Part shown: positions 1-35,375 of the stretch, piece by piece | How the letters are laid out: each line of letters begins with the position of its first letter | Numbering within the stretch: the stretch's first letter is position 1 | NCBI GenBank assembly: GCA_038890815.1 | Contig: JAWAFC010000003.1 | Location: 575-64,574, forward strand | Length of the DNA: 64,000 nucleotides | Direction of reading: 5' to 3' | Source: Candidatus Micrarchaeia archaeon | GTDB taxonomy: Archaea > Micrarchaeota > Micrarchaeia > Burarchaeales > JACRGF01 | Notes under the pieces: generated by a model | The model's database searches: none | What the model was told of the DNA's origin: nothing | The model's input: only the letters and a program-made list of their open reading frames with translations | Program-made: the position numbers and the translations under genes

Positions 1-2345
1 ATTGGGCGCCCTTGTTTCCCTATCGAGGGCGTACCGCCCCAGCCAAACTATCCATCTGCTGCTGTCCTTGTGACAGTTAGACACAATGCAGCCTTTGAGT
101 GGTGTTACACTTTCGCCTATCCGCAACCCGAAAGCTGCGGCATCAACGGCTCCCACTTACGCTCCGCAAAGGCAACATTGCATCAACAGCAGACTATAGT
201 AAAGCTCCACGGGGTCTTCGTTTCCCCCTAGGAGTCCTCGGCATCTTCACCGAGCAGTAAGTTCACCAGGTCCCGGGTAGGGACAGTGGGACGCTCGTTA
301 CGCCCTTCATGCAAGTCACCAATTAAGCGACGAGGTATTACGCTACCTCAAGAGGGTCAGAGTTACCCCCGCTCTTTGCCGGCGCTTCGCTCCCTTGGAA
401 GGGAGTTTGACGTACCGGTAGTGAGCAGGCGTCGCCCCCCATACTAGGCCTTTCGACTTAGCGGGGAGCTGTGTTTTTGGTAAACAGTCGGCGTCCCCTT
501 GTCACTGCGACCTGCAGTTGCACCTTGCGGCACAACCGCAGGCAAGGCTTCTCCCGAAGTTACGCCTCCAACTTGCCGAATTCCCTTACCCGAGTTCCCC
601 TGCCACGCCTTGGCTTTTTCTGCCAGGGGCACCTGTACTGGTTCTAGGTACGGGCTCGCGGGATCGTTCCCGGCTCTCTTTTCACGGGCTCAGGGGATTG
701 ACGGAACCTCCTTTCGAAGGCCTTCCTGCAGTTGAACAGCTTCTCCTCATAACGAGCCTCCGCTGTGCTGCTGCAGTTAAATGGGCTCTCGCCCACTCCG
801 CCTACCCCCAAGCGTCAAGAGCCGGGCATGTGTTGCCACGCCTACCCGCGAGGCACAGGAATTTTAACCTGTTTCCCTTTCGTCTCCGAGTAATTGGCTG
901 GAGACTTAGGACCGGCTTACTCTTGGCTGACGAACGTTGCCAAGAAACCCGTGCCCTATCCGGCGTTCAGGATTCTCACCTGAATTCGCTGCTACTAATA
1001 CCAGGATATTCATTCCACGCCGCTCCACGGGACCTCACGGCCCCGCTTCTGCGCAGCGCGGACGCCCTCCTACCAGATGACGAGCACAGCTCGTCCTCCG
1101 GGGTCTCGGCGGCTGGCTTAGCCCCGTACATCTTCGGAGCGTGCGTTCTCGGCTGGTCCGCTATTACGCGTTGTTTAAAGGATGGCTGCTTCTAAGCCTA
1201 CCTCCCAGCTGTCTGGGAACGGGCGCTCCTTGTGGATTAGCACTTAGCCAGCTCTTAGGGGCCTTAACCTCGGTCTCGGTCGTTCCCGTCCCGGCCCGCT
1301 AGCTTACCCAGCGGAGCCCTACTCCTGCCTTCTACGGCGCGCACAGATTCGGAGTTTGAGAGGATGGCGGTCCCTTTCGGAACCATTCCACCCAATCAGT
1401 GCTCTACCCCGTGCGCTGCCTCTGGCAGAGCCATCCTGAGGGATGCTTCGGAGGGGACCCGCTATCGCCAAGTTCGATTGGACTTTCACCCCTAAACGTG
1501 GGTCACCCGAGCGGATATACCAGCACCGGTTGCGGGCCTCCACCATCCGGAAGGACGGCTTCGCCCTGCCCACGCTTAGATCACATTGGCTTCGGGTCTC
1601 CAGGAAGTGACTGGCCGCGCTTTCGCACGGCGCCCCTCGCGCTTGCGCGCTGCGGGCTATCGCTTTCGCTACGGCTTTCGCCTCGCCACTTCCAGGAACT
1701 CCCTGGCTCTTGCTTCAAGAAGAACGACGCAACACTGGTTGGTGCGCATCGCTCCCACGCTCTCGCGAGGTTGCTTTTGCGCACGGCATTCCTTTCGCGC
1801 TGCGTCGAACTGTCGCCATCCAGTTTCGGGCTCTTTTAACTCCCCTCCCGGGGTGCTTTTCAGCTTTCGCTCGCGCTACTTGTGCGCTATCGGTCTCGGG
1901 TTATATTTAGGGTTGGAGGTTGCTCCCCCCATTTTCGCGCCCAAAACTCGATGGACGCTACTCTGCGCGCGCCCTCTCCCCTCTCCCTGCCTACGAGGCT
2001 ATCACTCTGTATCGCGGGGCTTTCCAGCCCACTTCGACAGAGTTTGGGGAATGAGTTGGCGCGCACCACATCTTACCCCCGGTTGCCCGGAGGAATTCGG
2101 TTTGCCCTGTGCGGCTTTCAATCGCCTTTACTCACCGCATCCCAATTGGTTTCTTCTCCTGCGGGTACTAAGATGTTTCAATTCCCCGCGTAGCTGCGTG
2201 TTCCCACGCAATCGGCAATCCCGGGTTCAAAGGCTGCATGCGCCTACCCCGGGCTTATCGCAGCTTGCCACGGCCTTAGGCTACCCGAGCCAAGCCGTCC
2301 ACTGGATGGCTTAATCGCTCGTGTGTAGATGCCTTTGGTTGTCCC
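1..2345 (-). rRNA. 23S rRNA, partial (5' ~2.3 kb; 3' end lies beyond the window start)
   Basis: The reverse complement carries conserved 23S blocks. GGAAACGAAGACCCCGTGGAGCTTTACTATAG (E. coli ~2060-2090 region) lies at ~170-200. The 5'-domain block GCCGTGGCAAGCTGCGATAAGCC lies near 2290-2330. The six-frame ORFs inside this region are spurious. Confidence 0.88.
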
Positions 2346-2489: not shown

Positions 2490-2632
2490 TGGACCTGGCG
2501 AGAGTCTCGCGCCACGCGCCTGCAACCGGGCGCGCGGTTCGGTTCGAACTCGCGGCCTCCTCGTTGCAAACGAGGCGCTCTCTCATGGAAGCTTCCGCAT
2601 CGCGGAAAGCCCTACCATTGAGCTACAGGCCC
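2490..2632 (-). tRNA. tRNA-Ala(UGC) in the 16S-23S spacer, interrupted by two non-canonical introns (~31 nt in the D-loop; ~39 nt after the T-loop at ~59/60)
   Basis: Read on the minus strand and after removing two inserts, every stem pairs perfectly. The elements are acceptor GGGCCTG/CAGGTCC with G3-U70, D-stem GCTC/GAGC, anticodon stem CCTCG/CGAGG with loop TTTGCAA (anticodon TGC), T-stem GCGAG/CTCGC with T-loop TTCGAAC, and discriminator A. Confidence 0.7.
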
Positions 2633-3053
2633 ATGCTTCAAGGAACGAGAGACTTTTGCAGGAGCGTCCGCGAGCGCCTTGCACATCGTGACTCTTCCAA
2701 ATGGAAGAGTCAAAGGAGGTGATCTATCCGCAGGTTCCCCTACGGATACCTTGTTACGACTTAGCCCTCCTCACGAAACTCCGGCTCGACACTGGCAATA
2801 ACCAGCGCCTCATCGGAGCCTCGCTTGGATGACTTGACGGGCGGTGTGTGCAAGGAGCGGGGACGTATTCGCCGCTCGATGTTGACAAGCGACTACTAGG
2901 GATTCCAGCTTCATGAGGGCGGGTTTCAGCCCTCAATCCGAACTTAGGCCGAGTTTCCCCCCCATTTCCAGTTAGAAAATGGGTTTAGGGGATTAGCTTC
3001 GCCTCTCGGCGTCGCAACCCATTGTCTCGGCCATTGTATGCCACGTGTGGCCT

Positions 3054-3084
<31 letters not shown>

Positions 3085-3131
3085 CCCACTCCTTCCTCGG
3101 TTTTAACAACCGCGGTCCCCACAGAGTGCCC

Positions 3132-3671
3132 TCACCCCGGAGGATGAGGTAGCAACTGTGGGCGTGGGTCTCGCTCGTTTCCGGGCCACAGAGCCTTACA
3201 GACAGAATGTCTGCAAAAAGGAAGGATGAAAGATGCAAACGCGCGCGATGGCCAAACGAACAGTCTGCGCCTCACGCGCCGAGTTCTGAAACCGAGGCGA
3301 TTCAGCAGAAATTCATCCTCGCTGTCCGCGCGCGTCAGAAAGGGGAGGCCCTTCTCCGCGCCGCCACAGGCATCAAACCAGCCCGCGATGTATGCGGCAC
3401 TCTTGGCATTTTTCCTCGAAAATAGCCGCAGCCTCTCCCGCTCGCACTCCTGGAAGAATGCGCGTAGCCTGCTGTGATAGAAGAAAACCTTCTGCCCGCG
3501 GAGCTGTAGCCTGTCGGCAGTGGTGAGCTTCTGCGCGAGAACCTCGCGGATGAAGATCTCCGCTAGCTCGCCGCGTGCGGCAATGCCGACTCCCTCTGAA
3601 GTTGCTCTGGCCTTCCACATTCCAAGGATGTGGGCAAGAGCTGGGCTGAGCCTGAGCTTCATGCGCCTCAT
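3132..3671 (-). CDS. LAGLIDADG-family homing endonuclease (intron-encoded; the reading frame continues 16 codons into the downstream 16S exon)
   Basis: A 179-aa ORF with the motif AAYIAGWFDACGG near residue 92 and a degenerate first motif (HILGMWKARATSEGVG) near residue 15. The size and two-motif layout resemble I-DmoI and I-PorI type enzymes. Confidence 0.6.
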   Translation of the reverse strand: MRRMKLRLSPALAHILGMWKARATSEGVGIAARGELAEIFIREVLAQKLTTADRLQLRGQKVFFYHSRLRAFFQECERERLRLFSRKNAKSAAYIAGWFDACGGAEKGLPFLTRADSEDEFLLNRLGFRTRRVRRRLFVWPSRAFASFILPFCRHSVCKALWPGNERDPRPQLLPHPPG

Positions 3672-3704
3672 TCCTCATTTATTAATAATAGGGCTCTGCG
3701 GCTT
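3181..3704 (-). mobile_element. Archaeal rRNA intron inside 16S (between GTTAAGTCCGGT and AACGAGCGAGACCC, E. coli ~1090-1100), carrying a homing endonuclease ORF
   Basis: About 520 nt interrupt two conserved 16S blocks that are normally contiguous. The intron is AT-richer than the flanking rRNA and contains a LAGLIDADG ORF on the same strand. Confidence 0.75.
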
Positions 3705-3851
3705 ACCGGACTTAACCGGACAGTTCACACCACGAGCTGACGATGGCCATGCACCACCTCTCGGCTCGTCTGGCAAGGTCTTCAGCCTGGCCTTCATACT
3801 GCCGTCGCTCCCAGTAATGTTCCCGGCGTTGAATCCAATTGAACCGCAGCA

Positions 3852-3895
<44 letters not shown>

Positions 3896-4078
3896 CCTTG
3901 CGGCCGTACTCCCCAGGTGGCAGACTTAACACTTACGCTACGGCACTGCACCGGCTCTAAGCCGGTGCAACACCTCAGTCTGCATCATTTACTGCTAGGG
4001 CTACTCGGGTATCTAATCCGATTCGTTCTCCTAGCCTTCGTCCCTCACTGTCGGACGCGTTTTGGTCGAGCGCCTTTT

Positions 4079-4128
4079 GTGGAACCTTTTTTCGTCAACG
4101 TTTTTTCGTATCGACGAAAAAAGGTTGC
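4079..4128 (-). other. AT-rich ~50-nt palindromic hairpin insertion in 16S between CCAGTGGCG and AAGGCG (E. coli ~720; h22/h23 region); possible mini-intron or expansion segment
   Basis: The 16S-sense sequence CAACCTTTTTTCGTCGATACGAAAAAACGTTGACGAAAAAAGGTTCCACA has 14-bp inverted repeats (AACCTTTTTTCGTC / GACGAAAAAAGGTT). It also has a 3-nt bulge (CGC) four bp from the helix base. The equivalent archaeal 16S region normally has no insertion. Confidence 0.5.
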
Positions 4129-5107
4129 GCCACTGGTGGTCCTCACAGGATTAACGGATTTTACCCCTACCCCGTGAGTACCCTCGACCTCCCCCGCTCC
4201 CAAGCCTGCCAGTATTCCCTGCGCGCGCTGAGGTTAAGCCCCAGCATTTCACAGGGAACTTAACAGGCCAGCTACGGACTCTTTAAACCCAATATTCGTG
4301 GGCACCACTTGTGTTGCCGGTATTACCGCGGCGGCTGGCACCGGTCTTACCCAACACTTATTCAGCGAGTTGTTTGGACTCGCTAAAAGCCGAGCGCGTA
4401 GCCCGGCACTCCGAGTTCCCTCGTCACGCTTGCGCGCATTGCGAAGGTTTCGCGCCTGCTGCATCCCGTAGGACTAGGGCCCTTGGACCGGGCTGACCAC
4501 CTGCGAAGCTGGTCATCCCGTTTGTCTCAGTGCCCTTCTCGGGGCTCCAACTCCCATTGCCCCCACCGATTATCGGCTTGGTGAGCCGTTACCTCACCAA
4601 CAACCTAATCGGCCGCAGTCTCATCCTGGGGCGGACGCGCTCCAATTCGCGCGCCTTTTGAGTCGCGGGGGAGTTCCACCTCCCGCGGCCTGCCGGGGGT
4701 TAGCCACACTTTCGCGTGGTTATCCCCGTCCCCAGGGTAGATTGACTACGTGTTACTGAGCCGTACGCCGCCCGCCCAAGTGGGCGAGCAGACTTGCATG
4801 GCTTAGTCGAACTCGGATAGCAGTGCCCTCCAGCGGGATCAACTGGAGTTTGGACTGCCGTTCTGACAGTCCGCACACGCAGGAGTACCACCGCTTAGCG
4901 GTGGAAGCACTCACGATGCTCCTCTTGCCGTCTCTCGCCATTCCTTGAAGCCCAAGTCCAACCCGAATTACCTCGGGTTGCCATCGCGAAACCGAGCCGC
5001 TCGAAGGTGTACGCTGCAGTGGAAGGCAAACTTCATCGCCGCGAACTTAGAATTCGCGCTTCATCCAGCCGGGACTGCAGCCTCTCGGTAAGCTCGATTT
5101 TTGAGCA

Positions 5108-8860: not shown

Positions 8861-10078
8861 GTGCGGCGTGTGGTCTTGTTGCTTCTGCTCGCAGGCTGTA
8901 TCTCCCAGCCTCCCGCCAACATCACGCTAGCCAACGTCACCCTGCCCGCCAACATCACACAGGCGAACATCACTCCCGTGAATCTCACGCAGCCAAGCGC
9001 GGAGAACATAACGCTCCCAATCGTAACCATCTCTCCATGCAACAGAATTTCCGCCCAGCCCGAGAGGGATGCCTGCGTGGCCGAGGTCGCGCTGAGGCTG
9101 AAAGAGGCGGGGCTGTGCGCGCAGGTGGCCGCGCGCGATAGAAGGTTTGCCTGCGCGCTGTCTGTGGCGAGCGCCACGCGGAATGCCAGCGCCTGCCTTC
9201 AGCTCGGTGAGGAGGCGGGCAGGTGTGTGCTGTTCTTGGTGCCGAACATCGGAGGTGAGGGCTGTGCGCTCATCAGCGGGCCTGAGCGGGAGATGTGCGA
9301 GGGCCTGGCGGCCTCCCTGAGAGGCGCTGAGGCGTGCGTTGCGCTTGCCGGCAGGGCGAGGGAGGTGTGCGCAAGGCAGGTGGCCCAGAATACGGGTAAT
9401 ACGAGCGTGTGCGAGCTGCTGGCTGGCGCGGCGAGGGAGGGGTGTAGTGCCGGCGCGCGGAGAGCAATTGGGATTAACATTAGCTGGAGCTCCTGCGCCG
9501 ATGCCCCGCAGGCAGCAAGGGATGGATGTTATTACCAGCAGGGAGTGGCGCGCGGCGATCCGGCCCTCTGCATGAGGATATCGAATGCAGATATGAGGGA
9601 GGGCTGCCTTGTGGTGCAGGACGATGGGGCGCTGAGCGCAGCCGCGCTCAATCAATCAAATCCATCGGCATTGTACTGCAAGTACATTCGAGCGCCAGAG
9701 ATGCGGGATGCCTGTTATGAGTGGGTGGCCATCTACCTGCTCGATCAGGGCCCGTGCGCTTTTGTCTCGCACAAGGACATCAAGGATGCCTGCTTTGCCT
9801 TCTCAAAGGCAAGCGATGCCCTTGAGCGAATTGTGGCCTTTGGCAATCCGGAAGGATGCGCGGTGCTGAATTTTCTCGGGGAGAAGGATGCCTGCTACGC
9901 CCGCATCGCTGCGGCCAAAGGAGACGCAACAATATGCGAAAAAATCACAAAAGAGCCCATGAGGGTGGAGTGCGCGCTGTCCCTGCTGTCGCAGCAGAAT
10001 GCCGCGACAGTGGCCGCGATATGCGAGGGGCTGACCAATGAGGAGGTGAAGGCGAATTGCACACACGCGCTTGGCTGA
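8861..10078 (+). CDS. Secreted/lipoprotein-like glycoprotein: N-terminal NxT sequon-rich stalk followed by ~12 Cys-pair repeats
   Basis: A 405-aa ORF starting MRRVVLLLLLAGC. It carries NITLANVTLPANITQANITPVNLTQPSAENITL and then repeats of (R/K)(D/E)xC-13..25-C, for example ERDACVAEVALRLKEAGLC, PEREMCEGLAASLRGAEAC and EMRDACYEWVAIYLLDQGPC. Confidence 0.7.
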   Translation: MRRVVLLLLLAGCISQPPANITLANVTLPANITQANITPVNLTQPSAENITLPIVTISPCNRISAQPERDACVAEVALRLKEAGLCAQVAARDRRFACALSVASATRNASACLQLGEEAGRCVLFLVPNIGGEGCALISGPEREMCEGLAASLRGAEACVALAGRAREVCARQVAQNTGNTSVCELLAGAAREGCSAGARRAIGINISWSSCADAPQAARDGCYYQQGVARGDPALCMRISNADMREGCLVVQDDGALSAAALNQSNPSALYCKYIRAPEMRDACYEWVAIYLLDQGPCAFVSHKDIKDACFAFSKASDALERIVAFGNPEGCAVLNFLGEKDACYARIAAAKGDATICEKITKEPMRVECALSLLSQQNAATVAAICEGLTNEEVKANCTHALG

Positions 10079-11829
10079 TTTTGCTTGCGGTGATGGGGCT
10101 GGCCATCGCCCAGCCGACATGCAGCGATCCGGCAACTGACACAAGGTATGGAGTGTGTTTCTCGCCTGGCTCGGGCACGGAGGAGCCATTTGAGTGCCCT
10201 AATGTCACGGATAAGTGGGGGAACAAACACAACAATTCGCAGTGGCTCAAGCAGACTCCCCTCGGGGATTTCGCCCTGTCGTGCGATGACCTCAATCCAT
10301 GCACTGAGGATTTTTTCGATGAGGACAAGGGGAAATGCATGTGCAGAGCAGTGCAGGATGGCTTCTATGGGGAGTGCGCGGGGCCGGATATGAGCGCGAG
10401 CAATGCGGCCTGCACCGAAAAGCGTTGCATTGGGGGAGTTTGCAAAACAATCACCGTTAAGGGAATAACCCCCATGTGCTCGGCAAGTGCTACCTACGAT
10501 TCACCTTGCAAGATAAATGTGTGCGAGAGCGGCGTCTGCACCGGGCCGAGGATTATTGGAGTGAATTTTGATTCGCAACGGGCGTGCTGCGGCAACGGCG
10601 AGCTGGAAGGCGATGAGAAGGATTGGTGCTGTGCAGACCTGCAGGCGACCGGCACGGGCCTGCCTGAGGGAAAGGAGTGCATCGGTGGCATAATGGTCAC
10701 AAAGAGCTATCTGGAGAGGGACCTTCAGCCCTTCATCAGGGCATTTCCATCGTGGGGGCCCGTCATCGTGCTCGCCCTTCTTATAGGCTATTTCCTCGCC
10801 GCGCTGGGCTACATGGCCGCGAGCTTTTTCAGGATGCCCGAGCTCGAGGCATGGGCAAAGAACGAGCTGGCTGAGGTGAGCGCAAGCGCGTTTTTTGCGG
10901 CCAATGCGATTTTTTTCATCGGGCTGATTGATGCGGCAGCTGTTGAGCTCATTGGGAAAGATTACTTCACCGTGGCGGCGAGCTTCCTCAACCTCCTGGC
11001 GGGCGAGACAGCGGCCATCATGGCCGAGCTGACGAGGGCGCAGTTCATTCTCGGATTCGGCTCAATGCTTGGAGTGCAGTTTGGTGTGCCTATATTTATT
11101 GTGATCGGATTCCTCGTGCCGGGCATGACGGCCTATCCTCTCGTGGGGGCTCGCATCATCACCACGGCGCTCGCCACCTATGGGAATGTCGCCACAATGA
11201 GCCTGATGAGCGCGCTCGGCATGGCCGTACTGCTGGAGTTCATAAACAGGTATGCGCTGACCGTCATACTGCCCGCTGGCATTGTGTTGAGGTGCTTCAC
11301 GCTGACGAGGCGGCTGGGGGCAACGCTCATGGCCATCGCAGTGGGCCTGTACGTGTTTTACCCACTGTCGCTGGCATGGAACGGCATGATATACGGCAAT
11401 GTGGAGAGGCCCAGCACGGGCGGCGTTTCGTTCATGAGCATCATAAACAACATCGTCGATCCCACGCCATTCCTTGAGATATTCGGCGGGCCCCCATTCA
11501 GGAGGTTCTGCGTGCACTGGTATGACTGGGTATGGTGCTGGTGGTATGCCATCATATGGTGGATCATCAACATGGTCATCGCATTCATCCAGCTTACCAT
11601 AGCGCTGGCCATGCTGTATTATGTTGGGCTTGCGACCACGCCCATAGGCGGCATCGGCGTGCTTGCATACGACTATTTTGTCGGTCTCATACCATCCATG
11701 ATTAGAACGATGGCGGGGGCATTCCTCTTCCCACTCATAGATCTAATTATAGTGGTTACGGCCATACGCTCGATATCGCCCGCCATTGGCGGGGAAACGA
11801 GGATAACGGGGCTGGTGGAGTTCATATGA
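10057..11829 (+). CDS. Membrane protein, paralog 1 of a six-member family, with an extra N-terminal ~200-aa cysteine-rich (EGF-like CxC) ectodomain
   Basis: A 590-aa ORF with a signal peptide and Cys-rich region. It then carries the family motifs GYMAASFFRMPELEAWAKNELAEV and LPAGIVLRCFTLTRRLGATLMAIAVGLYVFYP, plus the C-tail GETRITGLVEFI. Confidence 0.75.
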   Translation: MHTRAWLILLAVMGLAIAQPTCSDPATDTRYGVCFSPGSGTEEPFECPNVTDKWGNKHNNSQWLKQTPLGDFALSCDDLNPCTEDFFDEDKGKCMCRAVQDGFYGECAGPDMSASNAACTEKRCIGGVCKTITVKGITPMCSASATYDSPCKINVCESGVCTGPRIIGVNFDSQRACCGNGELEGDEKDWCCADLQATGTGLPEGKECIGGIMVTKSYLERDLQPFIRAFPSWGPVIVLALLIGYFLAALGYMAASFFRMPELEAWAKNELAEVSASAFFAANAIFFIGLIDAAAVELIGKDYFTVAASFLNLLAGETAAIMAELTRAQFILGFGSMLGVQFGVPIFIVIGFLVPGMTAYPLVGARIITTALATYGNVATMSLMSALGMAVLLEFINRYALTVILPAGIVLRCFTLTRRLGATLMAIAVGLYVFYPLSLAWNGMIYGNVERPSTGGVSFMSIINNIVDPTPFLEIFGGPPFRRFCVHWYDWVWCWWYAIIWWIINMVIAFIQLTIALAMLYYVGLATTPIGGIGVLAYDYFVGLIPSMIRTMAGAFLFPLIDLIIVVTAIRSISPAIGGETRITGLVEFI

Positions 11830-12803
11830 GGGCTTGGCTCATCGTGCTTGCACTCCTCCTTGCCGGCTGCACAGCCGAGCCACTCGCCGAGCTGCCTGGA
11901 TGCATCGCCCTGAGCGTGCGTGAGGAGCCGGAGCTGTATGGGTTGGTATTCGTGGCGCTGGTGGGCGTGCTGTTTGCCATCGCCATCGGCTACATGGCAG
12001 CCCAGCTTTTCAGGAGGCCTGACTGGGAAGCCATGGTGAGAGTGGAGCTCACCCAGACACTGCTGGGTGCGAGCATGATTTTCATCGCTGTGTGGCTGAG
12101 CGCATTCTCCTGCTCGATAAGCTATGAGCTTGCCGGGGGGGATACATTTGCCAAGGCAAACGCATACCTCGCAGGACTGACTTACGGGGAAATGATTCCG
12201 GCCATCATGAGGCTGTACGACAAGGCATGGCAGGCGGAGAAGCTGACGGCCTGGATCATTGGCATTTCCTCCTGCATGAGCGGCGTGTGTTTCCAGCCCT
12301 ATGCAGGCTACAGCATGGTTAGCTACAACCTCGGAACTGTGGCCGGCCTGCTCGCTCCCATCGTCACTTCGCTCATGGTGCAGATGCTCGCCCTCCAATT
12401 CATACAGCAGTTCGCATTTGTTTATCTGCTTCCGCTCGGCCTGCTGCTCAAGGCCGTGCCCTTCACAAGGGAAGCCGGCGCATTTCTCATCGCGCTCGCC
12501 ATCGGGCTGTATGTGGTCCTCCCGCTCACCTATATTTTCAATGCGAGAGTCATGGCGGACATCGGGCCGAGCATCACTGCGGGGAGCTACTGCGCGCTGA
12601 AGGCCGGGCCGGGTGACAAGCCAGGCGGGCAGGCGCTCGACAGCACGCTGGAGGGCGTTGGTGGGTTGTGCTCCACGGTCATTGCAGTTGTCGGGAAGAT
12701 TCTTCCGCAGGCAGTTTTCCTGCCCGCCCTCAACATAGTCATAACGCTCGCCTTTACAAGGACGATGGCGAGGATATTCACGCGGGATTACATGTTGGGG
12801 TAA
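11826..12803 (+). CDS. Membrane protein, paralog 2 (FtsX/MacB-like topology; novel family)
   Basis: A 325-aa ORF with an ATGA overlap to the upstream gene. Its motifs are IGYMAAQLFRRPDWEAMVRVELTQ and LPLGLLLKAVPFTREAGAFLIALAIGLYVVLP. Confidence 0.75.
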   Translation: MRAWLIVLALLLAGCTAEPLAELPGCIALSVREEPELYGLVFVALVGVLFAIAIGYMAAQLFRRPDWEAMVRVELTQTLLGASMIFIAVWLSAFSCSISYELAGGDTFAKANAYLAGLTYGEMIPAIMRLYDKAWQAEKLTAWIIGISSCMSGVCFQPYAGYSMVSYNLGTVAGLLAPIVTSLMVQMLALQFIQQFAFVYLLPLGLLLKAVPFTREAGAFLIALAIGLYVVLPLTYIFNARVMADIGPSITAGSYCALKAGPGDKPGGQALDSTLEGVGGLCSTVIAVVGKILPQAVFLPALNIVITLAFTRTMARIFTRDYMLG

Positions 12804-12807
12804 TGGC

Positions 12808-14025
12808 ATGCGGAAGATGATACACTTTGTGCTGCTTTGGCTTCTGCTTGCCAACAGCGTGGCTGCCGAACAGCAGTGTGAGGGCACGCGCATGTGCACG
12901 CTGTTCGCCAACTGGGCGCCCATCACTGCCATGGTCATACTCATCTCTCTCTTCGTTGTGTCGCTGGCCTTCATGGTGGGCAAGGGCCTCGGCATGCGGG
13001 ACATTGAGATGTTCGCCAAGGAGGAGCTGTACCAGTGCATTGCCAGCGCACTCATCCTCGGTGTGTTCATCAGTTTTGCGGCGCTCCTTGAGAGCACCTC
13101 GCAGCAGCTGGCCGGTGACATACTGACGGCCGGCACTCAGGGCACGACATTCGGCACACCAATCACAATGCGCTGGGAGTACACGGGCGACAGGAGCATG
13201 CGCTGGAGGACGACGGGCGCGCTCACCATAGAGAGATGCGGAGCTAACGACCCATTTCCCGATAAGAAATGCCACTTTTATTTGGCCAGGGCATTTTTGG
13301 GCAGCACGTTCGAAAAGCTGTCTGGGCAGGCGAGGGAGGTCGTAAAGCTGTATGGGCTCAGCATACTGTTTGACACCACATCCGTAAGCCTGGGGCTGCT
13401 TATCTTCGGACCCGTGTTTGGATTGGGGTTTGGCGTACCCCTTTTCGGTGGCAACAGCCTCCTGTACGAAACGCTCGAAACCATCTTCTCGGTCATGGCG
13501 AAGACGATGCTGCTGCTGAAATTCCAGGAGGTATCGCTCATGTACATCGAGAGGGGAATTTTCCCAGGCCTCATGATTGCCGGCCTCGTCTTCCGCTCCA
13601 TCTGGTTCATGCGGAAGCTCGGTGGGCTGCTGCTCGCGCTCGCCATCGGGCTATACACAATATTGCCGTTCATGTACATACTCAGCTGGTATACGATGGA
13701 TGCCGCACAGGCGAGGTATGATGTGAGCGCGCTGACCACCGCGCTTCAGAATAGGCAGAGCGCAGCGCAGGCCGTGATGGAGGAGCGGGGGCGTGATGTG
13801 GGGATAGGGCTATTTTTCCACCATGAGTACAGTGTGCTATTCACACACTACAGGTCTGATGGCAGCGTTGAGTACTATGGCATGCTCGATCTGGCCGGCA
13901 GGTATGCGCTCATAGCCATGGCAACGCCCACCATCGCGCTGTTCGTGCTGCTTGGTTTCGTGAGAGAACTGTCCGGCTTCCTGGGAGGGGACATTGAGAT
14001 CGCCGGACTGACGAGGATATTGTGA
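12808..14025 (+). CDS. Membrane protein, paralog 3
   Basis: A 405-aa ORF with the motifs LAFMVGKGLGMRDIEMFAKEELYQ and FPGLMIAGLVFRSIWFMRKLGGLLLALAIGLYTILP, and the C-tail GGDIEIAGLTRIL. Confidence 0.75.
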   Translation: MRKMIHFVLLWLLLANSVAAEQQCEGTRMCTLFANWAPITAMVILISLFVVSLAFMVGKGLGMRDIEMFAKEELYQCIASALILGVFISFAALLESTSQQLAGDILTAGTQGTTFGTPITMRWEYTGDRSMRWRTTGALTIERCGANDPFPDKKCHFYLARAFLGSTFEKLSGQAREVVKLYGLSILFDTTSVSLGLLIFGPVFGLGFGVPLFGGNSLLYETLETIFSVMAKTMLLLKFQEVSLMYIERGIFPGLMIAGLVFRSIWFMRKLGGLLLALAIGLYTILPFMYILSWYTMDAAQARYDVSALTTALQNRQSAAQAVMEERGRDVGIGLFFHHEYSVLFTHYRSDGSVEYYGMLDLAGRYALIAMATPTIALFVLLGFVRELSGFLGGDIEIAGLTRIL

Positions 14026-15212
14026 TGGCAACGAGAGCTGTGCTCAGCGTGCTGTTGCTTTTGGCTATGGGAGGGGCTGCCTGGGCGCAGGCAGCATGGG
14101 CTCCTGGCTGGATGAGCGTGGCTTTCCTGGCGCTGTTGGTTTCCTATTTCATGATAGGACTGGCCTTCATGTATGCCATAGGCTTCCAGGACGCCAGGAT
14201 GGAGGCCTGGTGCAGGCACGAGTTTTACCAGAACAGCGCCACGGCTGTTTTGCTGGGCATGCTCGTGGGGGTGAGCGCGCTGCTCGACAACACGCTGTAT
14301 CCGGCGTTCTGGAGCACGTCAATACTCAATCCTGAAAGCCAGAGGGCCAGCGCGAGCGTCTGCCCCAGCTCCACGCTGTCGGTGCCTGGGTTTGGGCTCT
14401 CGGTGACGCTCAACTCGCTGCGGTACAGCCCGCCAAGGGGAGGAAGGGGATTTGGAAACATACAAAATCATGTTGTGGGATATGTGGGGTGCCTTAGAAC
14501 GGCGGTCACAAAATACCTACTCGAGCTAAATCTCGGCGGTGTGTTCTTCGGCTTCATCTCCTCGCTGATGTTCAGTTTCGAGTTTGTGGAAATCAAGTTT
14601 GGCATGCTCAACATAATGCCGGGCGTTGTGATGAAGCCGGTGACGGACATGCTCGGCTACATAAACACGCTCGTGGCCATGCTCTTCCTGCAGCTCAGGG
14701 TGCAGGAGCTTGTGCTGACTTTCGCCCGCGATTATGCATTCTCTTTCCTGCTGCCTCTCGGCGTTGCCCTCAGGGCATTCACTTTCACGCGCGGGGCGGG
14801 TGGGGCGCTCATCGCCATCGCTGTCGGATTCTACATCGTGCTGCCCATCACCTATCTCTTCCAAGAGGAGATAACTGCTGATTACTGCGCGCGCCATGAC
14901 TGCCAGCGCTCGCTGCTCGCCAGATTTGGGTATGCGGGCAATCTGTATGACATCATTGTGGGGCTCATGGCAAGCGCACAAAGCGGCGGCATTGGCAGAG
15001 GGCTCACTGTGGCAGGCTCATTTGGGCAGGGCTACTCGCTGTCCGAGCTGATGTCGCTCAATGGACCTTTCGGGCCCGTGATATTCGTAGCCGGCATATC
15101 GGGGGCCGTGCTGCCCGCGCTCGGGCTCATCACGACATTCATATTTATGAAGTCCTTCGCGAACCTCATGGGAAGTGATGTGGACTTCAGCACGCTGATA
15201 AAAATTGTTTAG
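14022..15212 (+). CDS. Membrane protein, paralog 4
   Basis: A 396-aa ORF with an ATGA overlap. Its motifs are LAFMYAIGFQDARMEAWCRHEFYQ and LPLGVALRAFTFTRGAGGALIAIAVGFYIVLP, and the C-tail is GSDVDFSTLIKIV. Confidence 0.75.
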   Translation: MMATRAVLSVLLLLAMGGAAWAQAAWAPGWMSVAFLALLVSYFMIGLAFMYAIGFQDARMEAWCRHEFYQNSATAVLLGMLVGVSALLDNTLYPAFWSTSILNPESQRASASVCPSSTLSVPGFGLSVTLNSLRYSPPRGGRGFGNIQNHVVGYVGCLRTAVTKYLLELNLGGVFFGFISSLMFSFEFVEIKFGMLNIMPGVVMKPVTDMLGYINTLVAMLFLQLRVQELVLTFARDYAFSFLLPLGVALRAFTFTRGAGGALIAIAVGFYIVLPITYLFQEEITADYCARHDCQRSLLARFGYAGNLYDIIVGLMASAQSGGIGRGLTVAGSFGQGYSLSELMSLNGPFGPVIFVAGISGAVLPALGLITTFIFMKSFANLMGSDVDFSTLIKIV

Positions 15213-15220
15213 GTGGAAAC

Positions 15221-16258
15221 GTGAGCGTGTGTGCTGACCTGGCGAACTGGCCATCCGCCTGGTACACGGTTGCGGCCATCGGCATCGTGGCATCGGGCGC
15301 CGTCATTGGGTTGGTCTACATGATTGGGGTGACGCTCGGCAATCCCGGGCTCACCGCGCGCGCAAAGAACGAGATCTACCAAGTGGTGGCAACGCTGTGC
15401 ATGCTTGCCCTTGCCGTTGGGTTTGTGGGATTCGCCTGCACGGCCGATCTCAGCGGTTTCGGAGTGAGCGGAACGATCTATTCCGCCGCCGAGGCCTACC
15501 TCTCGTGGCTCGCCAGCCGCTCCATGTACGTGCTGGAGAGAATGATGCACCTGGCAGGGACGTGGGGATTTCTGGGCAGCATCGGCATGGGGATCACGAT
15601 AAGCGGCATAGGCTTCTCTTTCAACCCTTTCTCGGGCCTTTTTGGGCTTGTCAACATACTCAACATATTCATGTCGACAGCGCTCATCCTGTCGCTCACA
15701 ACGGCCGCGCAGTATGTGGTGTTCAAGTTCGCGCTTGAGGGCTTTCTGGGCTACCTCCTGCCTGTTGGTCTGGTGTGCAGGTGCTTCCCATTCACCCGCG
15801 ACTTCGGGGGCGCGCTGATTGCGCTCAGCGTAGGCTTCTCGCTGTTCTATCCATTCCTGTTCGCAGTGGACTGGGCGCTGGTGGGGCAGCCAACCAAGAG
15901 TACAATTGGAGGAGGGGGAGGAGATTTTGACAGGTGGGCGGTGGTGGATACGCTTGTGGGGTGGTATGTCTCCTTTGTAGTCGAGACTGTTGGTATCGTT
16001 ACCTTCTTTGCCGTCGTTGGAGTTCCGCTCATAATCCCGCCCATCCCGATTGTGAGCATACTGAAAATGCTCATGGAAATCTCCATCATGTTCCTTGATT
16101 CGATGATGCAGAGCGCGCTTATGCCGATAGGCGAAATACTTGTGGGCGGGCTTTTCCTGCCCGCGCTGAACGGCATCATACTTGTGGCTGTGGTGAGAGA
16201 TCTGTCGCGCGTGCTCGGCGAGGAGGTTGACATAACGACGCTGACGAGGATGGTTTGA
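15221..16258 (+). CDS. Membrane protein, paralog 5
   Basis: A 345-aa ORF with the motifs LVYMIGVTLGNPGLTARAKNEIYQ and LPVGLVCRCFPFTRDFGGALIALSVGFSLFYP, and the C-tail GEEVDITTLTRMV. Confidence 0.75.
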   Translation: MSVCADLANWPSAWYTVAAIGIVASGAVIGLVYMIGVTLGNPGLTARAKNEIYQVVATLCMLALAVGFVGFACTADLSGFGVSGTIYSAAEAYLSWLASRSMYVLERMMHLAGTWGFLGSIGMGITISGIGFSFNPFSGLFGLVNILNIFMSTALILSLTTAAQYVVFKFALEGFLGYLLPVGLVCRCFPFTRDFGGALIALSVGFSLFYPFLFAVDWALVGQPTKSTIGGGGGDFDRWAVVDTLVGWYVSFVVETVGIVTFFAVVGVPLIIPPIPIVSILKMLMEISIMFLDSMMQSALMPIGEILVGGLFLPALNGIILVAVVRDLSRVLGEEVDITTLTRMV

Positions 16259-17304
16259 TGACGTGGGAGACGAGCGCTGCTGATGTATACAAGACTTTCG
16301 GGGGCTATGGCTGGCTGGAAGTGGCCATGCTCGCCCTGCTCACCGCATTCCTGTCTGTCGCGCTCGCCTACATGCTCGCCATAGGGTTCAACCTGCCGAA
16401 CCTGAGGAGGTGGGCGAAAGCGGAATTTTATCAGGCTGCCGCGAGCGCCATGCTGGTGGCCCTCGTGTTCACGTTTGTTGAGGGAACAGATCTCCTGACT
16501 GGGGAAAGCCTGAAGTACTCGGCCGGCATCCAGCTGCTCCAGAAAAACACCGAGCTGTTTGCTGGCGACATCGTGGCGCCCGGCCAGAGGGGAAGGGTGA
16601 GGCCATTCAATGTTGTTTATGCACACGTGACCAACATGATAAACTGCGCCAGAGAAAAATACCTCAATGCCCTTGGCGAAACACAATGGCGGGAGTGGCT
16701 GACGCAGATTGTGATCACCCTGTCGATATATAAGATCGATTTGGTGATTCCGTTCCAGCTTCTCCTCTGGCCCCTCTACACGAACATCGTTGAGAACCAT
16801 GTCCTCGCCAACAGCCTTGTGTGGACGCTCATGGCCCTCTACTTCCAGCAGTCCTTCCTGCAGTGGGTTGAGACCTCGATGCTGACTGTGTTCTTCCCGC
16901 TCGGCATCATTTTGAGAATACTGCCCATCACGAGGGGAGCCGGAGCCGTGCTCATCGCCATCTCGCTGGGGCTCTACATCGTCTACCCGCTGCTGTTCAT
17001 ACTCATCGCCACAGCAGTGACTCCACCGAGCGGCTGCGCAAGGACCGAGATAACTCTCGAGCAGCCGCCCGAGATATGCGTCAGCGACCCATCGTCTTTC
17101 GTGCAGTTCCTAAAGGCAGCCGCACAGAGCAGAGGCACGCTCTACAGCGGGCAGGAGGCAAGCATGATGGCCCAGCTCACCATGTACGCCTTTTTCTATC
17201 CCCTCGTGATGATACTCATTGTGGTCATCTTTGTCAGGACGGCCTCCTCATTCCTCGGCGCAGAGATCACTGAGGTCGGGAGGGGGCTCTTCAGGCTGAT
17301 TTGA
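16255..17304 (+). CDS. Membrane protein, paralog 6
   Basis: A 349-aa ORF with an ATGA overlap. Its motifs are LAYMLAIGFNLPNLRRWAKAEFYQ and FPLGIILRILPITRGAGAVLIAISLGLYIVYP, and the C-tail is GAEITEVGRGLFRLI. Confidence 0.75.
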   Translation: MMTWETSAADVYKTFGGYGWLEVAMLALLTAFLSVALAYMLAIGFNLPNLRRWAKAEFYQAAASAMLVALVFTFVEGTDLLTGESLKYSAGIQLLQKNTELFAGDIVAPGQRGRVRPFNVVYAHVTNMINCAREKYLNALGETQWREWLTQIVITLSIYKIDLVIPFQLLLWPLYTNIVENHVLANSLVWTLMALYFQQSFLQWVETSMLTVFFPLGIILRILPITRGAGAVLIAISLGLYIVYPLLFILIATAVTPPSGCARTEITLEQPPEICVSDPSSFVQFLKAAAQSRGTLYSGQEASMMAQLTMYAFFYPLVMILIVVIFVRTASSFLGAEITEVGRGLFRLI

Positions 17305-31526: not shown

Positions 31527-33029
31527 TTATAAAAAGGCTTCTACATCCTGCTTTCGCTTTGCCTGCGCGGCCTCAAAGTTTTTGGCGAGCAATGAGAAGC
31601 TTTCCCCCCGGCTGCTGGCCTTGCTCCTGCGCTGGCGGATGCGAATGAACACTGGCTGGCTCACGGCCTCGCCCACCAGCAGGGCCTCGCCCGTGCGCAG
31701 CGTGGTGATGGCATCCAGCATGGCCTTGTCGATGCCTTCACAGGACTCGCCGATGTGCTGGATGTCATAGGGATTGGTGACTCTGAGGATGAGGTGGGAA
31801 TTGCACTGCGACAGGGCTGTTGTGGAGAGGTGTTTTGGCCTCTGCGAGATGAGCACCAGCGAGGCGCCGAACTTGCGCCCCTCTCGCGCAATTGTTATGA
31901 TGGGCCCTCTCGAGAGGGCCTCGCTCTGAGCGGTCTTCTCGGGCGCGAAGTTGTGCGCCTCCTCGATGAACAGCACGAATGGAGGGATTTTCTCCTTCTT
32001 CCTGGCCTTGAAAAGGCGGCGGGCGAAGTGCGCCACGATGAGCTGCTTCTTCTTCTGGTTGTCGATTGGCGAGAGATCGAGCACGCATAGCCGGCCCGGC
32101 TGAGCGAGCTCATCGAGCGAGGGCTTGTCGGCCTTACCGAAAAGTTTGAGGCTCTGCAGCTCGGCCAGCCAGGCAATGAGCGAGGCCTTCGTCTTCCTGT
32201 CCTCATCGCTGGCCGATATGGCGGCCATGACATCATCAAGCCCGTATGCCTCGCCGTTGGCTTTCTTTCGCCTCTTCAGCTCGCTCACAATGGCGATGAG
32301 CGAGCGCCGCTGTGAGCGCGAGAGCTCGGGCAGGAATTCGGCGAGCGAGGCGGGCGCCAGGCGGTGCAGCGCGATGCGAATGTCCTTGCCATCGATGACT
32401 GTGGTGCGGGCGGCATAGTCGCCCGACTTGAAGCCTGTGTACTCGCCGTGCACATCGACAACGATCACTGCGGGGCGGCCTGCCTCCGGCTTGCGCTCGA
32501 GCAGCTCCTCGATGACAACGGATGTGGCGTAGGATTTCCCAGAGCCCGAGATCCCGAGGATGGCGAGATGTTTTTGGAGGAAGGCATCGAGGCGCAGGCA
32601 GGCGCTGATCGTGTGGTGCTCGAGCTGTCCGATGTTGAGCCCGCCCTCCTCGAAACCCAGGAAATCCCTGAGCAGGCCCTCATCGGCAGACAGCACTTTA
32701 GCCCCGGGTGCTGCCGGAAAGAGCGGCCTGCCGATCGTGCTGCCATTCACAACGCCCAGCGCGCGCGCATTTGCCACGGCATACTCCCACTCAGTGACAG
32801 GGAAGTTGAGGCGCAGGGGCGCGCCCCTCTCATACTCGGCCACCGACTCGGCCCTCTCGAAGTAGCGGTTGGCGCGCGTGATGTCGGTCACGCACGCCAG
32901 CAGAAGGCCATCCTCGGTCTGGGTCTGAACAAACTGGCCCTTGCGCACGCCCTTACTCGTGATGACGAAGGAGAAGCTGGCTGTTGAGGGACCATCAAAT
33001 GTGGATATGACCGTGCCGAGCTCGTGCAT
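31527..33029 (-). CDS. herA: HerA-like (DUF87) hexameric ATPase
   Basis: The 500-aa size and Walker A ILGISGSGKSYATSVVIEELL fit. Walker B is VIVVDVHGEY and CVLDLS...FIEEAHNF is HerA-like. Confidence 0.55.
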   Translation of the reverse strand: MHELGTVISTFDGPSTASFSFVITSKGVRKGQFVQTQTEDGLLLACVTDITRANRYFERAESVAEYERGAPLRLNFPVTEWEYAVANARALGVVNGSTIGRPLFPAAPGAKVLSADEGLLRDFLGFEEGGLNIGQLEHHTISACLRLDAFLQKHLAILGISGSGKSYATSVVIEELLERKPEAGRPAVIVVDVHGEYTGFKSGDYAARTTVIDGKDIRIALHRLAPASLAEFLPELSRSQRRSLIAIVSELKRRKKANGEAYGLDDVMAAISASDEDRKTKASLIAWLAELQSLKLFGKADKPSLDELAQPGRLCVLDLSPIDNQKKKQLIVAHFARRLFKARKKEKIPPFVLFIEEAHNFAPEKTAQSEALSRGPIITIAREGRKFGASLVLISQRPKHLSTTALSQCNSHLILRVTNPYDIQHIGESCEGIDKAMLDAITTLRTGEALLVGEAVSQPVFIRIRQRRSKASSRGESFSLLAKNFEAAQAKRKQDVEAFL

Positions 33030-33043
33030 TCTGGCAAATTGGG

Positions 33044-33090
33044 CTTTCTGTTTTTAAATAAGCTTTGGTGGGGGAGTTCCGGTGAAGGCC
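33044..33090 (-). promoter_or_regulatory. herA promoter: TATA (TTATTTAAAAAC on minus) plus an upstream conserved element GCCTTCACCGGAACTCCCCCACCAAAGC. The element recurs at 47655-47705 and partly at 54815-54850
   Basis: The nearly identical 25-35 nt block GG(T)GGGGG.GGAGTTCCGGTGAA(G/A)GC lies next to a TTTAAA box. Both copies sit ~25-35 nt upstream of minus-strand starts. Confidence 0.4.
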
Positions 33091-33722
33091 TATGAGGGAA
33101 CCTGCTGGCGGTATTCCTTAGCCTGCTCTTCAGTGAGATGCTGGTAAACTACAACTTCACCATACTTATTGCGCGGGACTTCAAGTCCGTACTCTCCTTT
33201 TTCGGCGAGTTTTTCTATCTCTCCTAGACCCTTCACCTTAATATTGCGTGTCTCGGGGTTATAAACATAATATTTTCCGCCTAAGTATCCAGTTCTCTGC
33301 ATCGCGAGCTCGATTTTTTTCGTGCCCGTTCTCGTCAACGGCGCTGCGATGTTGTCCGCCTTTTTCTCAATGTCTTGGGCGATATCGTTTTTTCCTTCGC
33401 TGTAATTACTGGCTGCGAGCACATAATAGCTGAGCACTCGGCCAATCTGGGAGTCCGCGGTTATTTTGATGCCGTTGTTCTTTGCCCAATTAATCAGATC
33501 CTCAACTTTTTTAGCCAGCCGTTCAAATGTTTGGTGAAGATCAATATTTTGGAGATTTTGGGGAAAATATCCTCGTATTTTGCGGTATAGTTCTGAACTA
33601 AACATATCATAATAAAGTTTTTTGAAAAACAAAAACCCAAAAGTGCACTCTTCAATTAACTTTTTAATTTCCTCCCTTGACTTTTTAATTTCCTCCTGGC
33701 TTACAGACTGCTCTATGGGCAT
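33090..33722 (-). CDS. Hypothetical K/E-rich protein (AT-rich island)
   Basis: A 210-aa ORF of low GC with no recognisable motif. Confidence 0.4.
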   Translation of the reverse strand: MPIEQSVSQEEIKKSREEIKKLIEECTFGFLFFKKLYYDMFSSELYRKIRGYFPQNLQNIDLHQTFERLAKKVEDLINWAKNNGIKITADSQIGRVLSYYVLAASNYSEGKNDIAQDIEKKADNIAAPLTRTGTKKIELAMQRTGYLGGKYYVYNPETRNIKVKGLGEIEKLAEKGEYGLEVPRNKYGEVVVYQHLTEEQAKEYRQQVPS

Positions 33723-34046
33723 TTACGACACCCCCTCCTCCAGAACGGTGAATTCGCTTTTGGATATTTTATTCTCAAATTCCTTCATTTTGGAGTAATC
33801 GCCTGTGGCATAAGCGCCTGCGGCAATGCTCACGAGCTCGCTGTAAAGCTCAAAATAATCCCTTTCCTCGATTTTGCCGCTTTTTCTCAGGCTTTCCAGG
33901 AGCTTTTTCAGAGCCTCGTAGGAGTTTTCTATTTTCCTCCGAGCCTCTCTGAATTTTCTGAGCGGCTCGGGGCTGTTTTCCCGAAGCGCTTTGGCATATG
34001 CCTTCAGCAGGTTTTCGAAAAACTCTTCCTCCTCATCGCTCATCAT
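33723..34046 (-). CDS. Hypothetical acidic helical protein (AT-rich island), adjacent to or coupled with the downstream 210-aa ORF
   Basis: A 107-aa ORF whose stop abuts the start of the next ORF. Confidence 0.4.
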   Translation of the reverse strand: MMSDEEEEFFENLLKAYAKALRENSPEPLRKFREARRKIENSYEALKKLLESLRKSGKIEERDYFELYSELVSIAAGAYATGDYSKMKEFENKISKSEFTVLEEGVS

Positions 34047-34731
34047 GCTTTTCGACCTCTTTGTATGAAATCTCCGGAGCTCTTTTTTTGTATAGGTAGC
34101 TCTTCTTTAGATTGCTTCCAGTAAGCGAAAAATCTTCTCCCAAATCCTTCACAGCCGGCTCCAGTATTTCGGGCACTCCCTCCTCAGCGAGTATCCCGCT
34201 GATGCCTATCTCCCGCAGGCCGTATTCCTCGGTGAAGAGGAAGGCTGCTTTGCCGCCAATTATGAAGAGTGCCTTCTCTGAGGCCAACAGCGTGGCCTGC
34301 GCTATCCCAAGTTGGTATAGCCCGATGTCTTCACCTCTCCAGGCTATCAGCCTTCCGCTGTCATAAACCACGAGCGTTTTGCCCACAGCGAATGGTTGTG
34401 GGTGTGCCAGCGGGCTCCCGAGAGAGACATAGCTCAGCTGGTTATTTTCGATGCGATACAGGTGGCTGAATCCCCTGCCGAGGATGAATGTGCCTGCCCT
34501 TGTTCTGATGACATCGAACTGCCTGTCCCCCTCCATCCTCCTCACGGCACTGACGTCCAGCGCTTTTCCGAGCTCCTCAACGTAGATCACGTCCCCGAAG
34601 TTCCTGTAGCTGAGCCTGCTCAGCCCGGGCGCGCACGCGAGCGGCGAAAGCGCGAGCTCGGCGGCCAACACCGCTGCCGCGGCTCTTCTTGCCATTCTTG
34701 AGAAGGTGCGGGCGTGCTGCGTTTTGTGCAT
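34033..34731 (-). CDS. Hypothetical secreted protein
   Basis: A 232-aa ORF with a signal-peptide-like AAAAVLAAELALSPLACAPG. Confidence 0.4.
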   Translation of the reverse strand: MHKTQHARTFSRMARRAAAAVLAAELALSPLACAPGLSRLSYRNFGDVIYVEELGKALDVSAVRRMEGDRQFDVIRTRAGTFILGRGFSHLYRIENNQLSYVSLGSPLAHPQPFAVGKTLVVYDSGRLIAWRGEDIGLYQLGIAQATLLASEKALFIIGGKAAFLFTEEYGLREIGISGILAEEGVPEILEPAVKDLGEDFSLTGSNLKKSYLYKKRAPEISYKEVEKHDER

Positions 34732-34768
34732 GCGAAGATTATGCCTTTTTGTTTATAAAGAGCTTTGC

Positions 34769-35257: not shown

Positions 35258-35375
35258 GTATGCGGCGATGAAGAGGGTGAGGGTGGATAGGCTCAGGGCA
35301 TAGGCGGCCTCGAGGGGTATGCCAAGCCCCTGCGCGCTCTGTTGAACTGCAGCAGTATAGTTGAATGCGATGTGC

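Follow-up and report, generated by a model that had tools for sequence, protein, structure and literature searches.

A tRNA-Ala(UGC) gene in the rRNA spacer of a Micrarchaeia archaeon, probably split by two BHB-type introns

Introduction

In Candidatus Micrarchaeum acidiphilum (ARMAN-2; Fujishima et al. 2011, PMC3239211), 56% of the tRNA genes are disrupted. An intron at position 59/60 is present in the tRNA-Cys gene of this archaeon, and its tRNA-Pro(GGG) gene carries introns at positions 53/54 and 59/60 (PMC3239211). The epsilon2 endonuclease of ARMAN-2 has a broad specificity and cleaves both strict and relaxed BHBs (PMC3239211; PMC12397907). [quoted passage not shown] 2008; reviewed in PMC4090602). 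Both 20/21 and 59/60 figure among the non-canonical intron sites that have been listed for archaea (PMC4090602).

Here we analyse the window, which is the whole stretch of DNA under study, with a length of 64,000 nucleotides, and describe in it a tRNA-Ala(UGC) gene with one insert in the D-loop and another in the T-loop. The evidence makes it probable that this is a functional Micrarchaeia (DPANN) spacer tRNA-Ala(UGC) gene, split by two BHB-type introns at the positions 20/21 of the D-loop and 59/60 of the T-loop.

Organization of the interrupted gene

The gene is located in the 16S-23S spacer and is co-oriented with both rRNAs, as indicated by the Rfam matches and the sequence (Table 1). Read on the minus strand from 2632, the 5' half of the exons is GGGCCTG TA GCTC AATGGTA ↓ GAGC G CCTCG TTTGCAA CGAGG AGGCC, and the 3' half, which runs to 2490, is GCGAG TTCGAA ↓ T CTCGC CAGGTCC A (arrows, here and below, mark the junctions). 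In the spliced tRNA the acceptor, D, anticodon and T stems are all perfect, and the tRNA has the identity elements G3.U70 (2630/2493) and A73, with TGC (2568-2566) as its anticodon; CCA is not encoded. The end of exon 1 can be fixed only to within 1 nt, since cuts at equivalent positions yield an identical product.

Table 1. Coordinates of the interrupted tRNA-Ala(UGC) gene, of the rRNA operon around it and of other features of the window.
Feature	Coordinates	Strand	Basis or content
Interrupted tRNA-Ala(UGC) gene, complete	2490..2632	-	G1 = 2632, discriminator A73 = 2490; read from sequence
Exon 1	2614..2632	-	Acceptor 5' strand, U8 A9, D-stem 5' strand GCTC, D-loop AATGGT(A)
Putative intron 1, 32 nt, position 20/21 (equivalently 21/22 or 22/23)	2582..2613	-	Constrained fold, alignment with L109
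Putative intron 1, alternative 30-nt excision	2583-2612	-	Other BHB register
Exon 2, D-stem to anticodon arm	2543..2581	-	A21, GAGC, G26, CCTCG TTTGCAA CGAGG; anticodon TGC 2566-2568
Exon 2, rest	(2543..2581)	-	Variable loop AGGCC, T-stem 5' strand GCGAG, T-loop TTCGAA to A59
Intron 2, 39 nt, position 59/60	2504..2542	-	Strict hBHBh' motif
Exon 3	2490..2503	-	U60, T-stem 3' strand CTCGC, acceptor 3' strand CAGGTCC, U70 = 2493, A73
16S processing stem, 3' strand	2634..2713	-	Pairs with 16S leader 4862-4952; duplex -80 kcal/mol
16S rRNA, upstream in operon	2714..4849	-	Rfam SSU_rRNA_archaea, 1335 bits
23S rRNA, downstream in operon, cut by window edge	1..2326	-	Rfam LSU_rRNA_archaea, 1978 bits
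16S insert, 525 nt, putative BHB-type intron	3179-3703	-	Absent from four DPANN relatives
16S inserts found in the window only	4486-4524 (39 nt); 4077-4127 (51 nt); 2950-2979 (30 nt)	-	Comparison with relatives
HerA/NurA, FBP aldolase/phosphatase and glycogen debranching enzyme regions, listed jointly	31527-36413; 52187-53320; 37774-39678		

The sequence-only reading had recognized a spacer tRNA-Ala(UGC) with both inserts, four perfect stems and the alanine determinant G3-U70 at exactly these coordinates, and the spliced forms are indeed called by ARAGORN. Its length for the T-loop insert, about 39 nt, agrees with the 39 nt between the strict BHB cuts. The D-loop insert is present as described, with a length of 32 nt, or 30 nt in another BHB register, rather than about 31 nt; likewise a tRNA is restored, and it is not of 73 nt but of 72 nt (with a 32-nt intron 1) or 74 nt (with a 30-nt intron 1).

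It had also been anticipated that a standard scan would probably miss the gene, which is what occurs. ARAGORN reported 0 tRNAs in the 64-kb window, and the Rfam tRNA model gave the locus 23.8 bits against a cut-off of 29 bits, in a partial alignment that closes the acceptor stem wrongly; the uninterrupted tRNA-Ala genes of relatives score 66-75 bits with the same model. Under permissive settings, Rfam gave no further tRNA-like match anywhere in the window. Every form spliced in silico, of 72 and 74 nt, was named tRNA-Ala(tgc) by ARAGORN, and the unspliced and half-spliced forms were left uncalled. The cloverleaf is absent from the minimum free energy fold of the complete precursor (-74.2 kcal/mol, versus -68.6 kcal/mol for the constrained fold).

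Lineage and related loci

The SRP54 protein encoded in the window (44271-45602) is 100% identical to a protein from a 'Candidatus Micrarchaeia archaeon' MAG, and its best 120 matches are all from Micrarchaeia/Micrarchaeota. Judged by these protein matches, the host organism, which is uncultured and ultrasmall, is a member of the Micrarchaeia (DPANN). The multiple introns had earlier been taken as a hallmark of Thermoproteales; this origin is ruled out by the SRP54 match. The spacer tRNA and the rRNA of the window resemble DPANN loci. Iainarchaeia were rejected as near kin; the Iainarchaeia-like loci are distant kin, since their rRNA identity to the window is only 65-77%.

In DPANN relatives, the corresponding site of the 16S-tRNA-23S operon is occupied by a tRNA-Ala(UGC) without interruption, and the spliced tRNA of the window agrees with every invariant position of their tRNA-Ala. 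A cloverleaf alignment was made with the window gene and 12 further DPANN tRNA-Ala(UGC) genes, the majority of which are located in rRNA spacers (n=13). In this alignment 99.6% of the cells are paired, G3.U70 is present in 13/13 sequences, and ten pairs are changed on both sides. Exon 2 (39 nt) is 100% identical to the uninterrupted tRNA-Ala of two loci, L064 and L107.

Searches with exact patterns recovered uninterrupted genes. A scan of species-representative genomes with the 23-nt anticodon arm gave 104 loci, all of which are uninterrupted tRNA-Ala genes, with no split homologue among them; they belong mostly to CPR bacteria and Iainarchaeia-like archaea, and the genome of the window is outside that collection. 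The 30-nt pattern of exon 2 had a single match in the metagenome scan, the uninterrupted Iainarchaeia-like gene of L107. Two spurious ORFs, one over the 23S 5' domain and one over the spacer, had no exact matches on record. Homologues of the ORF antisense to the 23S led to L110-L111, which are short fragments with 23S only. L112-L117 were rejected as informative relatives, being distant, without a spacer tRNA, or bacterial. One of these loci (L114, 1067-1187) is an archaeal rRNA operon in which the spacer has only 119 nt and no tRNA, and therefore the presence of the spacer tRNA-Ala varies among the retrieved archaea.

The closest 16S relative is a JGI contig (L108), which was reached through a homologue of the neighbouring 405-aa protein and is 92% identical to the window in the 5' part of the 16S. 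This contig ends inside the 16S and hence is without the spacer. In its positions 1-1776, the Rfam model positions 1-874 are spread over 1776 nt, so that inserts add up to about 900 nt in the 5' half of its 16S; the window has no inserts of comparable size at these sites.

For the spacer, the closest of the retrieved loci is L109, a 289-kb ENA contig reached via the spurious ORF antisense to the 23S 5' domain; in this domain it is 78% identical to the window. The 5' part of its spacer tRNA-Ala is GGGCTCG TA GCTC AGTGGTA GAGC G CCTCC TTTGCGA GGAGG AGGCC, and the 3' part is GCGAG TTCAAA[AGCAGATAAACTGCTGAACA]T CTCGC CGAGTCC A, in which the bracket is a 20-nt intron. ARAGORN misses this gene too and calls it only after in-silico splicing. 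The rRNA operon of L109 (4727-8558) is heavily interrupted, with the 16S detected only as fragments. About 0.9 kb of LAGLIDADG-type ORF sequence is found just before helix 45 of its 16S, and the contig has further LAGLIDADG_3 ORFs.

The T-loop intron

The strict BHB scan bounded intron 2 with a strict 3-4-3 motif, in which the cuts fall after 2543 (5') and after 2504 (3'). The T-stem GCGAG/CTCGC is the outer helix; the central 4-bp helix pairs TTCG (2545-2548, nt 54-57) with CGAG (2506-2509, near the 3' end of the intron); the bulges, of 3 nt each, are AA↓C and AC↓T; and the inner helix is CG/CG, followed by a 2-nt AA bulge and a 9-bp GC-rich hairpin (2512-2537). An insert after TTCGAAC had been described from the sequence, which places it correctly at 59/60 and misassigns nucleotide 60, as the mature loop is TTCGAAT.

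The same scan gave about 30 short-range strict matches in 5.4 kb of structured rRNA, for which reason the BHB motif by itself was rejected as evidence and only its register relative to the tRNA is informative. An in-register BHB was recreated in 79 of 20000 shuffles of the insert (0.4%).

The intron of L109 is also at position 59/60 and also has a strict BHB, with the central helix TTCA/TGAA, versus TTCG/CGAG in the window, the bulges AA↓A and CA↓T, and the inner helix GCAG/CTGC. The change of G57 to A57 in the T-loop of L109 is accompanied by a matching C-to-T change on the intron side of the central helix. The interruption at 59/60 recurs, then, in an independently assembled lineage. Intron 2 is a BHB intron by several marks at once: its removal restores the cloverleaf, its BHB is strict, and its position and the covariation of its BHB are found in L109.

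The putative D-loop intron

The inner hairpin of intron 1 (2589-2612) is GGGC(T)TTCCGC-GAT-GCGGAAGCTT, with one bulged T; the hairpin had been noticed before in the unbulged form CTTCCGC-GAT-GCGGAAG. In the constrained fold, the D-loop ATGG (2615-2618) pairs with CCAT (2585-2588, near the 3' end of the insert) as a central helix, the 5' bulge has 2 nt (2-3 nt depending on the register), and the 3' side is a 4-nt loop, GAGA, beside an A.A mismatch. The D-loop junction was not reported by the strict BHB scanner, and the modelled BHB would be non-canonical, relaxed at best. A check of the two proposed junctions for BHBs, as recommended in the sequence-only reading, gave a strict motif at the T-loop and, at the D-loop, a motif that is relaxed at best, with an ambiguous 3' cut. 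An in-register relaxed BHB was present in 103 of 20000 shuffles of this insert (0.5%).

The 3' boundary of intron 1 is ambiguous by 2 nt. In the register with four Watson-Crick pairs (ATGG/CCAT), the cuts are symmetric (A21↓G and GA↓G), and the excision of 30 nt leaves a 9-nt D-loop. A second register, one nucleotide off, has an A.G closing pair and an unpaired C, and its 3-nt bulges (GT↓A and AG↓A) are flush with the D-stem; 32 nt are removed at 20/21 and the 7-nt loop AAUGGUA is left. The mature D-loop sequence predicted from these registers would be GGUAGAGC for the 32-nt excision and GGUAGAGAGC for the 30-nt excision.

This ambiguity bears on the strongest of the alternative explanations, in which only the T-loop insert is a true intron and the D-loop insert is either retained or removed in a way that leaves GA, giving a 74-nt tRNA with a 9-nt D-loop. 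The sole register with four Watson-Crick pairs does remove 30 nt and not 32, and the 74-nt form is also accepted by ARAGORN; the D-loop of all 12 relatives compared, however, is GGTAGAGC, without the extra GA, and the register one nucleotide away, with its flush bulges, gives the 72-nt product. L109, which is without the D-loop intron, has a D-loop of 7 nt, and its pairwise alignment with the window opens a gap of exactly 32 nt at the D-loop, which supports the 72-nt product for the window. In the architecture of tRNA, G18/G19 contact the T-loop, and a retained 32-nt hairpin would disrupt these contacts. The D-loops of the relatives, compared by sequence, thus appear to favour the 32-nt excision over the 30-nt one, and we consider the alternative possible but unlikely.

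No homologue of the D-loop intron was found in any second genome retrieved, and comparison with L109 suggests that this intron is a more recent gain. Neither intron 1 nor intron 2 has further copies in the window or in the fetched loci, and mobility of the introns was rejected on this ground. A C/D-box guide RNA within the introns was rejected as well, as the inserts are too short and box motifs are absent on reading the sequence.

Probable function of the split gene

The spliced tRNAs of the window and L109 are identical in 63/72 positions, and the differences include, in the acceptor stem and the anticodon stem, three double substitutions that are compensatory. These three stem changes therefore indicate selection on a working tRNA and argue for function. 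They weigh against the explanation of the locus as a decaying pseudogene, in which two insertions broke an ancestral spacer tRNA-Ala that no longer matures, and another tRNA-Ala(UGC) gene does the decoding. Such decay would fit with the score of the locus below the threshold of standard models, with a D-loop junction that is not a canonical BHB, and with the failure of exact exon-2 patterns to recover a two-intron form elsewhere. Yet all 72 of 72 exon nucleotides keep perfect stems and identity elements, the in-register BHB features of both inserts are rare among shuffles, and a lineage with only 78% identity in the 23S has retained an intron at 59/60. A pseudogene is accordingly a very improbable explanation. 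An assembly or binning artefact, such as a chimeric join within a repeated rRNA operon, is hardly credible: metagenomic assembly of rRNA operons is difficult, the Logan assembly of SRR27730023 has a break immediately ahead of the 16S, with no second assembly of the spacer, and the Logan contig with the neighbouring 1218-aa gene stops 573 nt past this gene, before the 16S, so that the spacer was not recovered; but the insert boundaries are such that removal restores a tRNA, both inserts form BHB structures and are without other copies in the window, and L109, from another sample and an independent assembly, has the same interruption at 59/60.

The reading as a functional gene with two BHB-type introns has a consequence for annotation. 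Automatic annotation would score this genome as being without a spacer tRNA-Ala, and perhaps without any tRNA-Ala(UGC), and a gene missed in this way would feed false claims of a 'missing tRNA' in DPANN archaea.

A further extension of this reading is that the 59/60 intron is vertically old in the spacer tRNA-Ala of Micrarchaeia, and that the twice-split gene is possibly the only tRNA-Ala(UGC) of a reduced DPANN genome; we regard this combination as improbable. If the gene were the sole tRNA-Ala(UGC), each rRNA precursor would require five or more EndA cleavage motifs and three ligations by RtcB, and alanine decoding and ribosome production would be tied to the same two enzymes, EndA and RtcB.

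The rRNA operon and proposed processing

In the very long 16S processing stem, the 3' strand stops 2 nt short of the 5' end of the tRNA. The BHB scan pointed to a candidate canonical BHB in this stem, with cuts after 4872 and after 2685.

The 16S gene itself contains a 525-nt insert. Its junction, read from the sequence, has a BHB-like CCGG/CCGG helix with the bulges TA↓A and AA↓A, and its excision restores the conserved GGTTAAGTCCGGTAACGAGCGAGACCC. Group I introns have been reported from Micrarchaeota (PMC6125680); this type was rejected for the insert, as there is no Intron_gpI match at the gathering score or at E<=1 in the whole window. A 179-aa ORF (3671->3132) in the insert has the LAGLIDADG-like strings LAHILGMW... 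and YIAGWFDACGG and overruns the intron end by 47 nt. It has no Pfam match at E<=0.001, and from its sequence it may be a decayed homing endonuclease.

Three smaller 16S inserts, found in the window and not in its relatives, could be mini-introns or simple helix expansions. The 51-nt one holds a strict BHB motif, with cuts after 4117 and 4088 (29 nt). Helix 45 and the 3' end of the 16S (2709-2745, minus strand; about 5005-5040 in L109) have the sequence GGTATCCG...CGGATAGATCACCTCC, which is common to the window and L109. The Iainarchaeia-like loci have GGTGTCCG...CGGACGGATCACCTCC at helix 45, and the difference from the window is compensatory. Going by these sequences, this unusual helix-45 variant may mark this clade of Micrarchaeia.

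From these elements the following processing can be proposed. The whole operon would be transcribed as a single precursor. EndA would then cut the BHBs of the 16S processing stem, of the 16S intron and of the two tRNA introns; the 23S flanking stems would presumably be cut by EndA likewise, the 23S 3' flank being outside the window. The three tRNA exons would be ligated by an RtcB-type enzyme, and RNase P and RNase Z would trim the tRNA ends. CCA would then be added, a step included because CCA is not encoded. We infer the actual splicing and the exact 3' cut of intron 1, and for the enzymes we rely on the Micrarchaeum literature (PMC3239211), by analogy with which EndA and RtcB would be the ones at work. 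Neither EndA nor RtcB had a match among the 28 ORFs of the window that were scanned (8 against NCBIfam and 20 against Pfam); the names returned by NCBIfam belong to unrelated functions.

A single rRNA operon transcript would, in this way, bear several endonuclease substrates at once, with both tRNA introns added to the 16S intron and the processing stem. The off-register BHB of the D-loop may also serve as a test substrate, on which it can be seen whether the epsilon2 enzyme takes the central helix or the exon helix as the reference point for its cut.

Neighbouring genes

Adjoining the rRNA operon, at 5154-28046, there is a block of genes without family matches. It includes giant secreted, Cys-rich or coiled-coil proteins of 1218, 2345 and 946 aa, and about seven multi-pass membrane proteins are found in a run at 10057-17304. 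Several of these membrane proteins have in common an acidic C-terminal tail (...DIEIAGLTRIL, ...DVDFSTLIKIV, ...EVDITTLTRMV). The JGI contig L108 has the genes of the block in the same order. In this DPANN archaeon the block may encode an apparatus of the cell surface or for attachment to a host.

Elsewhere in the window, a HerA helicase and a NurA nuclease are encoded about 2 kb apart. An FBP aldolase/phosphatase and an archaeal-type glycogen debranching enzyme are also encoded, which is ordinary archaeal content.

Comparison with known systems

To our knowledge, Crenarchaeota are generally without a tRNA in the 16S-23S spacer. The Thermoproteales, which belong to them, resemble the window in having BHB introns, the positions 20/21 and 59/60, and several introns per gene; they differ in that they are of another phylum and have an (alpha-beta)2 endonuclease. 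In addition, the introns of the window, compared with those of Thermoproteales, show no intron sequence family and no sign of transposition.

Uninterrupted spacer tRNA-Ala(UGC) genes of archaea (Euryarchaeota and DPANN, such as the Iainarchaeia loci L002, L064 and L076) share with the window gene the position, the anticodon and G3.U70. Unlike the window gene, the spacer tRNA-Ala genes of L002, L064 and L076 have no introns.

BHB-flanked rRNA introns and pre-rRNA stems are substrates of EndA (PMC7714728), and the transcript of the window carries putative elements of both kinds. Such elements release or interrupt rRNA, whereas the introns described here interrupt a tRNA. By analogy, one enzyme is expected to act on both the rRNA elements and the tRNA introns of this transcript.

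Among the described systems, Candidatus M. acidiphilum ARMAN-2 is of the same phylum-level lineage as the window. The two have in common a BHB intron at 59/60 and probably also a tRNA gene with two introns and a mix of strict and relaxed BHBs, and in both there are tRNA genes that default tRNA finders miss. They differ in the host gene, which is the spacer tRNA-Ala(UGC) in the window, and in the putative second intron, which is in the D-loop at 20/21 and not at 53/54. No description of an intron-bearing spacer tRNA was found in the literature searched, which is a weak negative. The phenomenon itself is known, from Micrarchaeum and from Thermoproteales; what is specific to the window is the spacer tRNA-Ala as the host gene, together with the probable combination of a D-loop and a T-loop intron.
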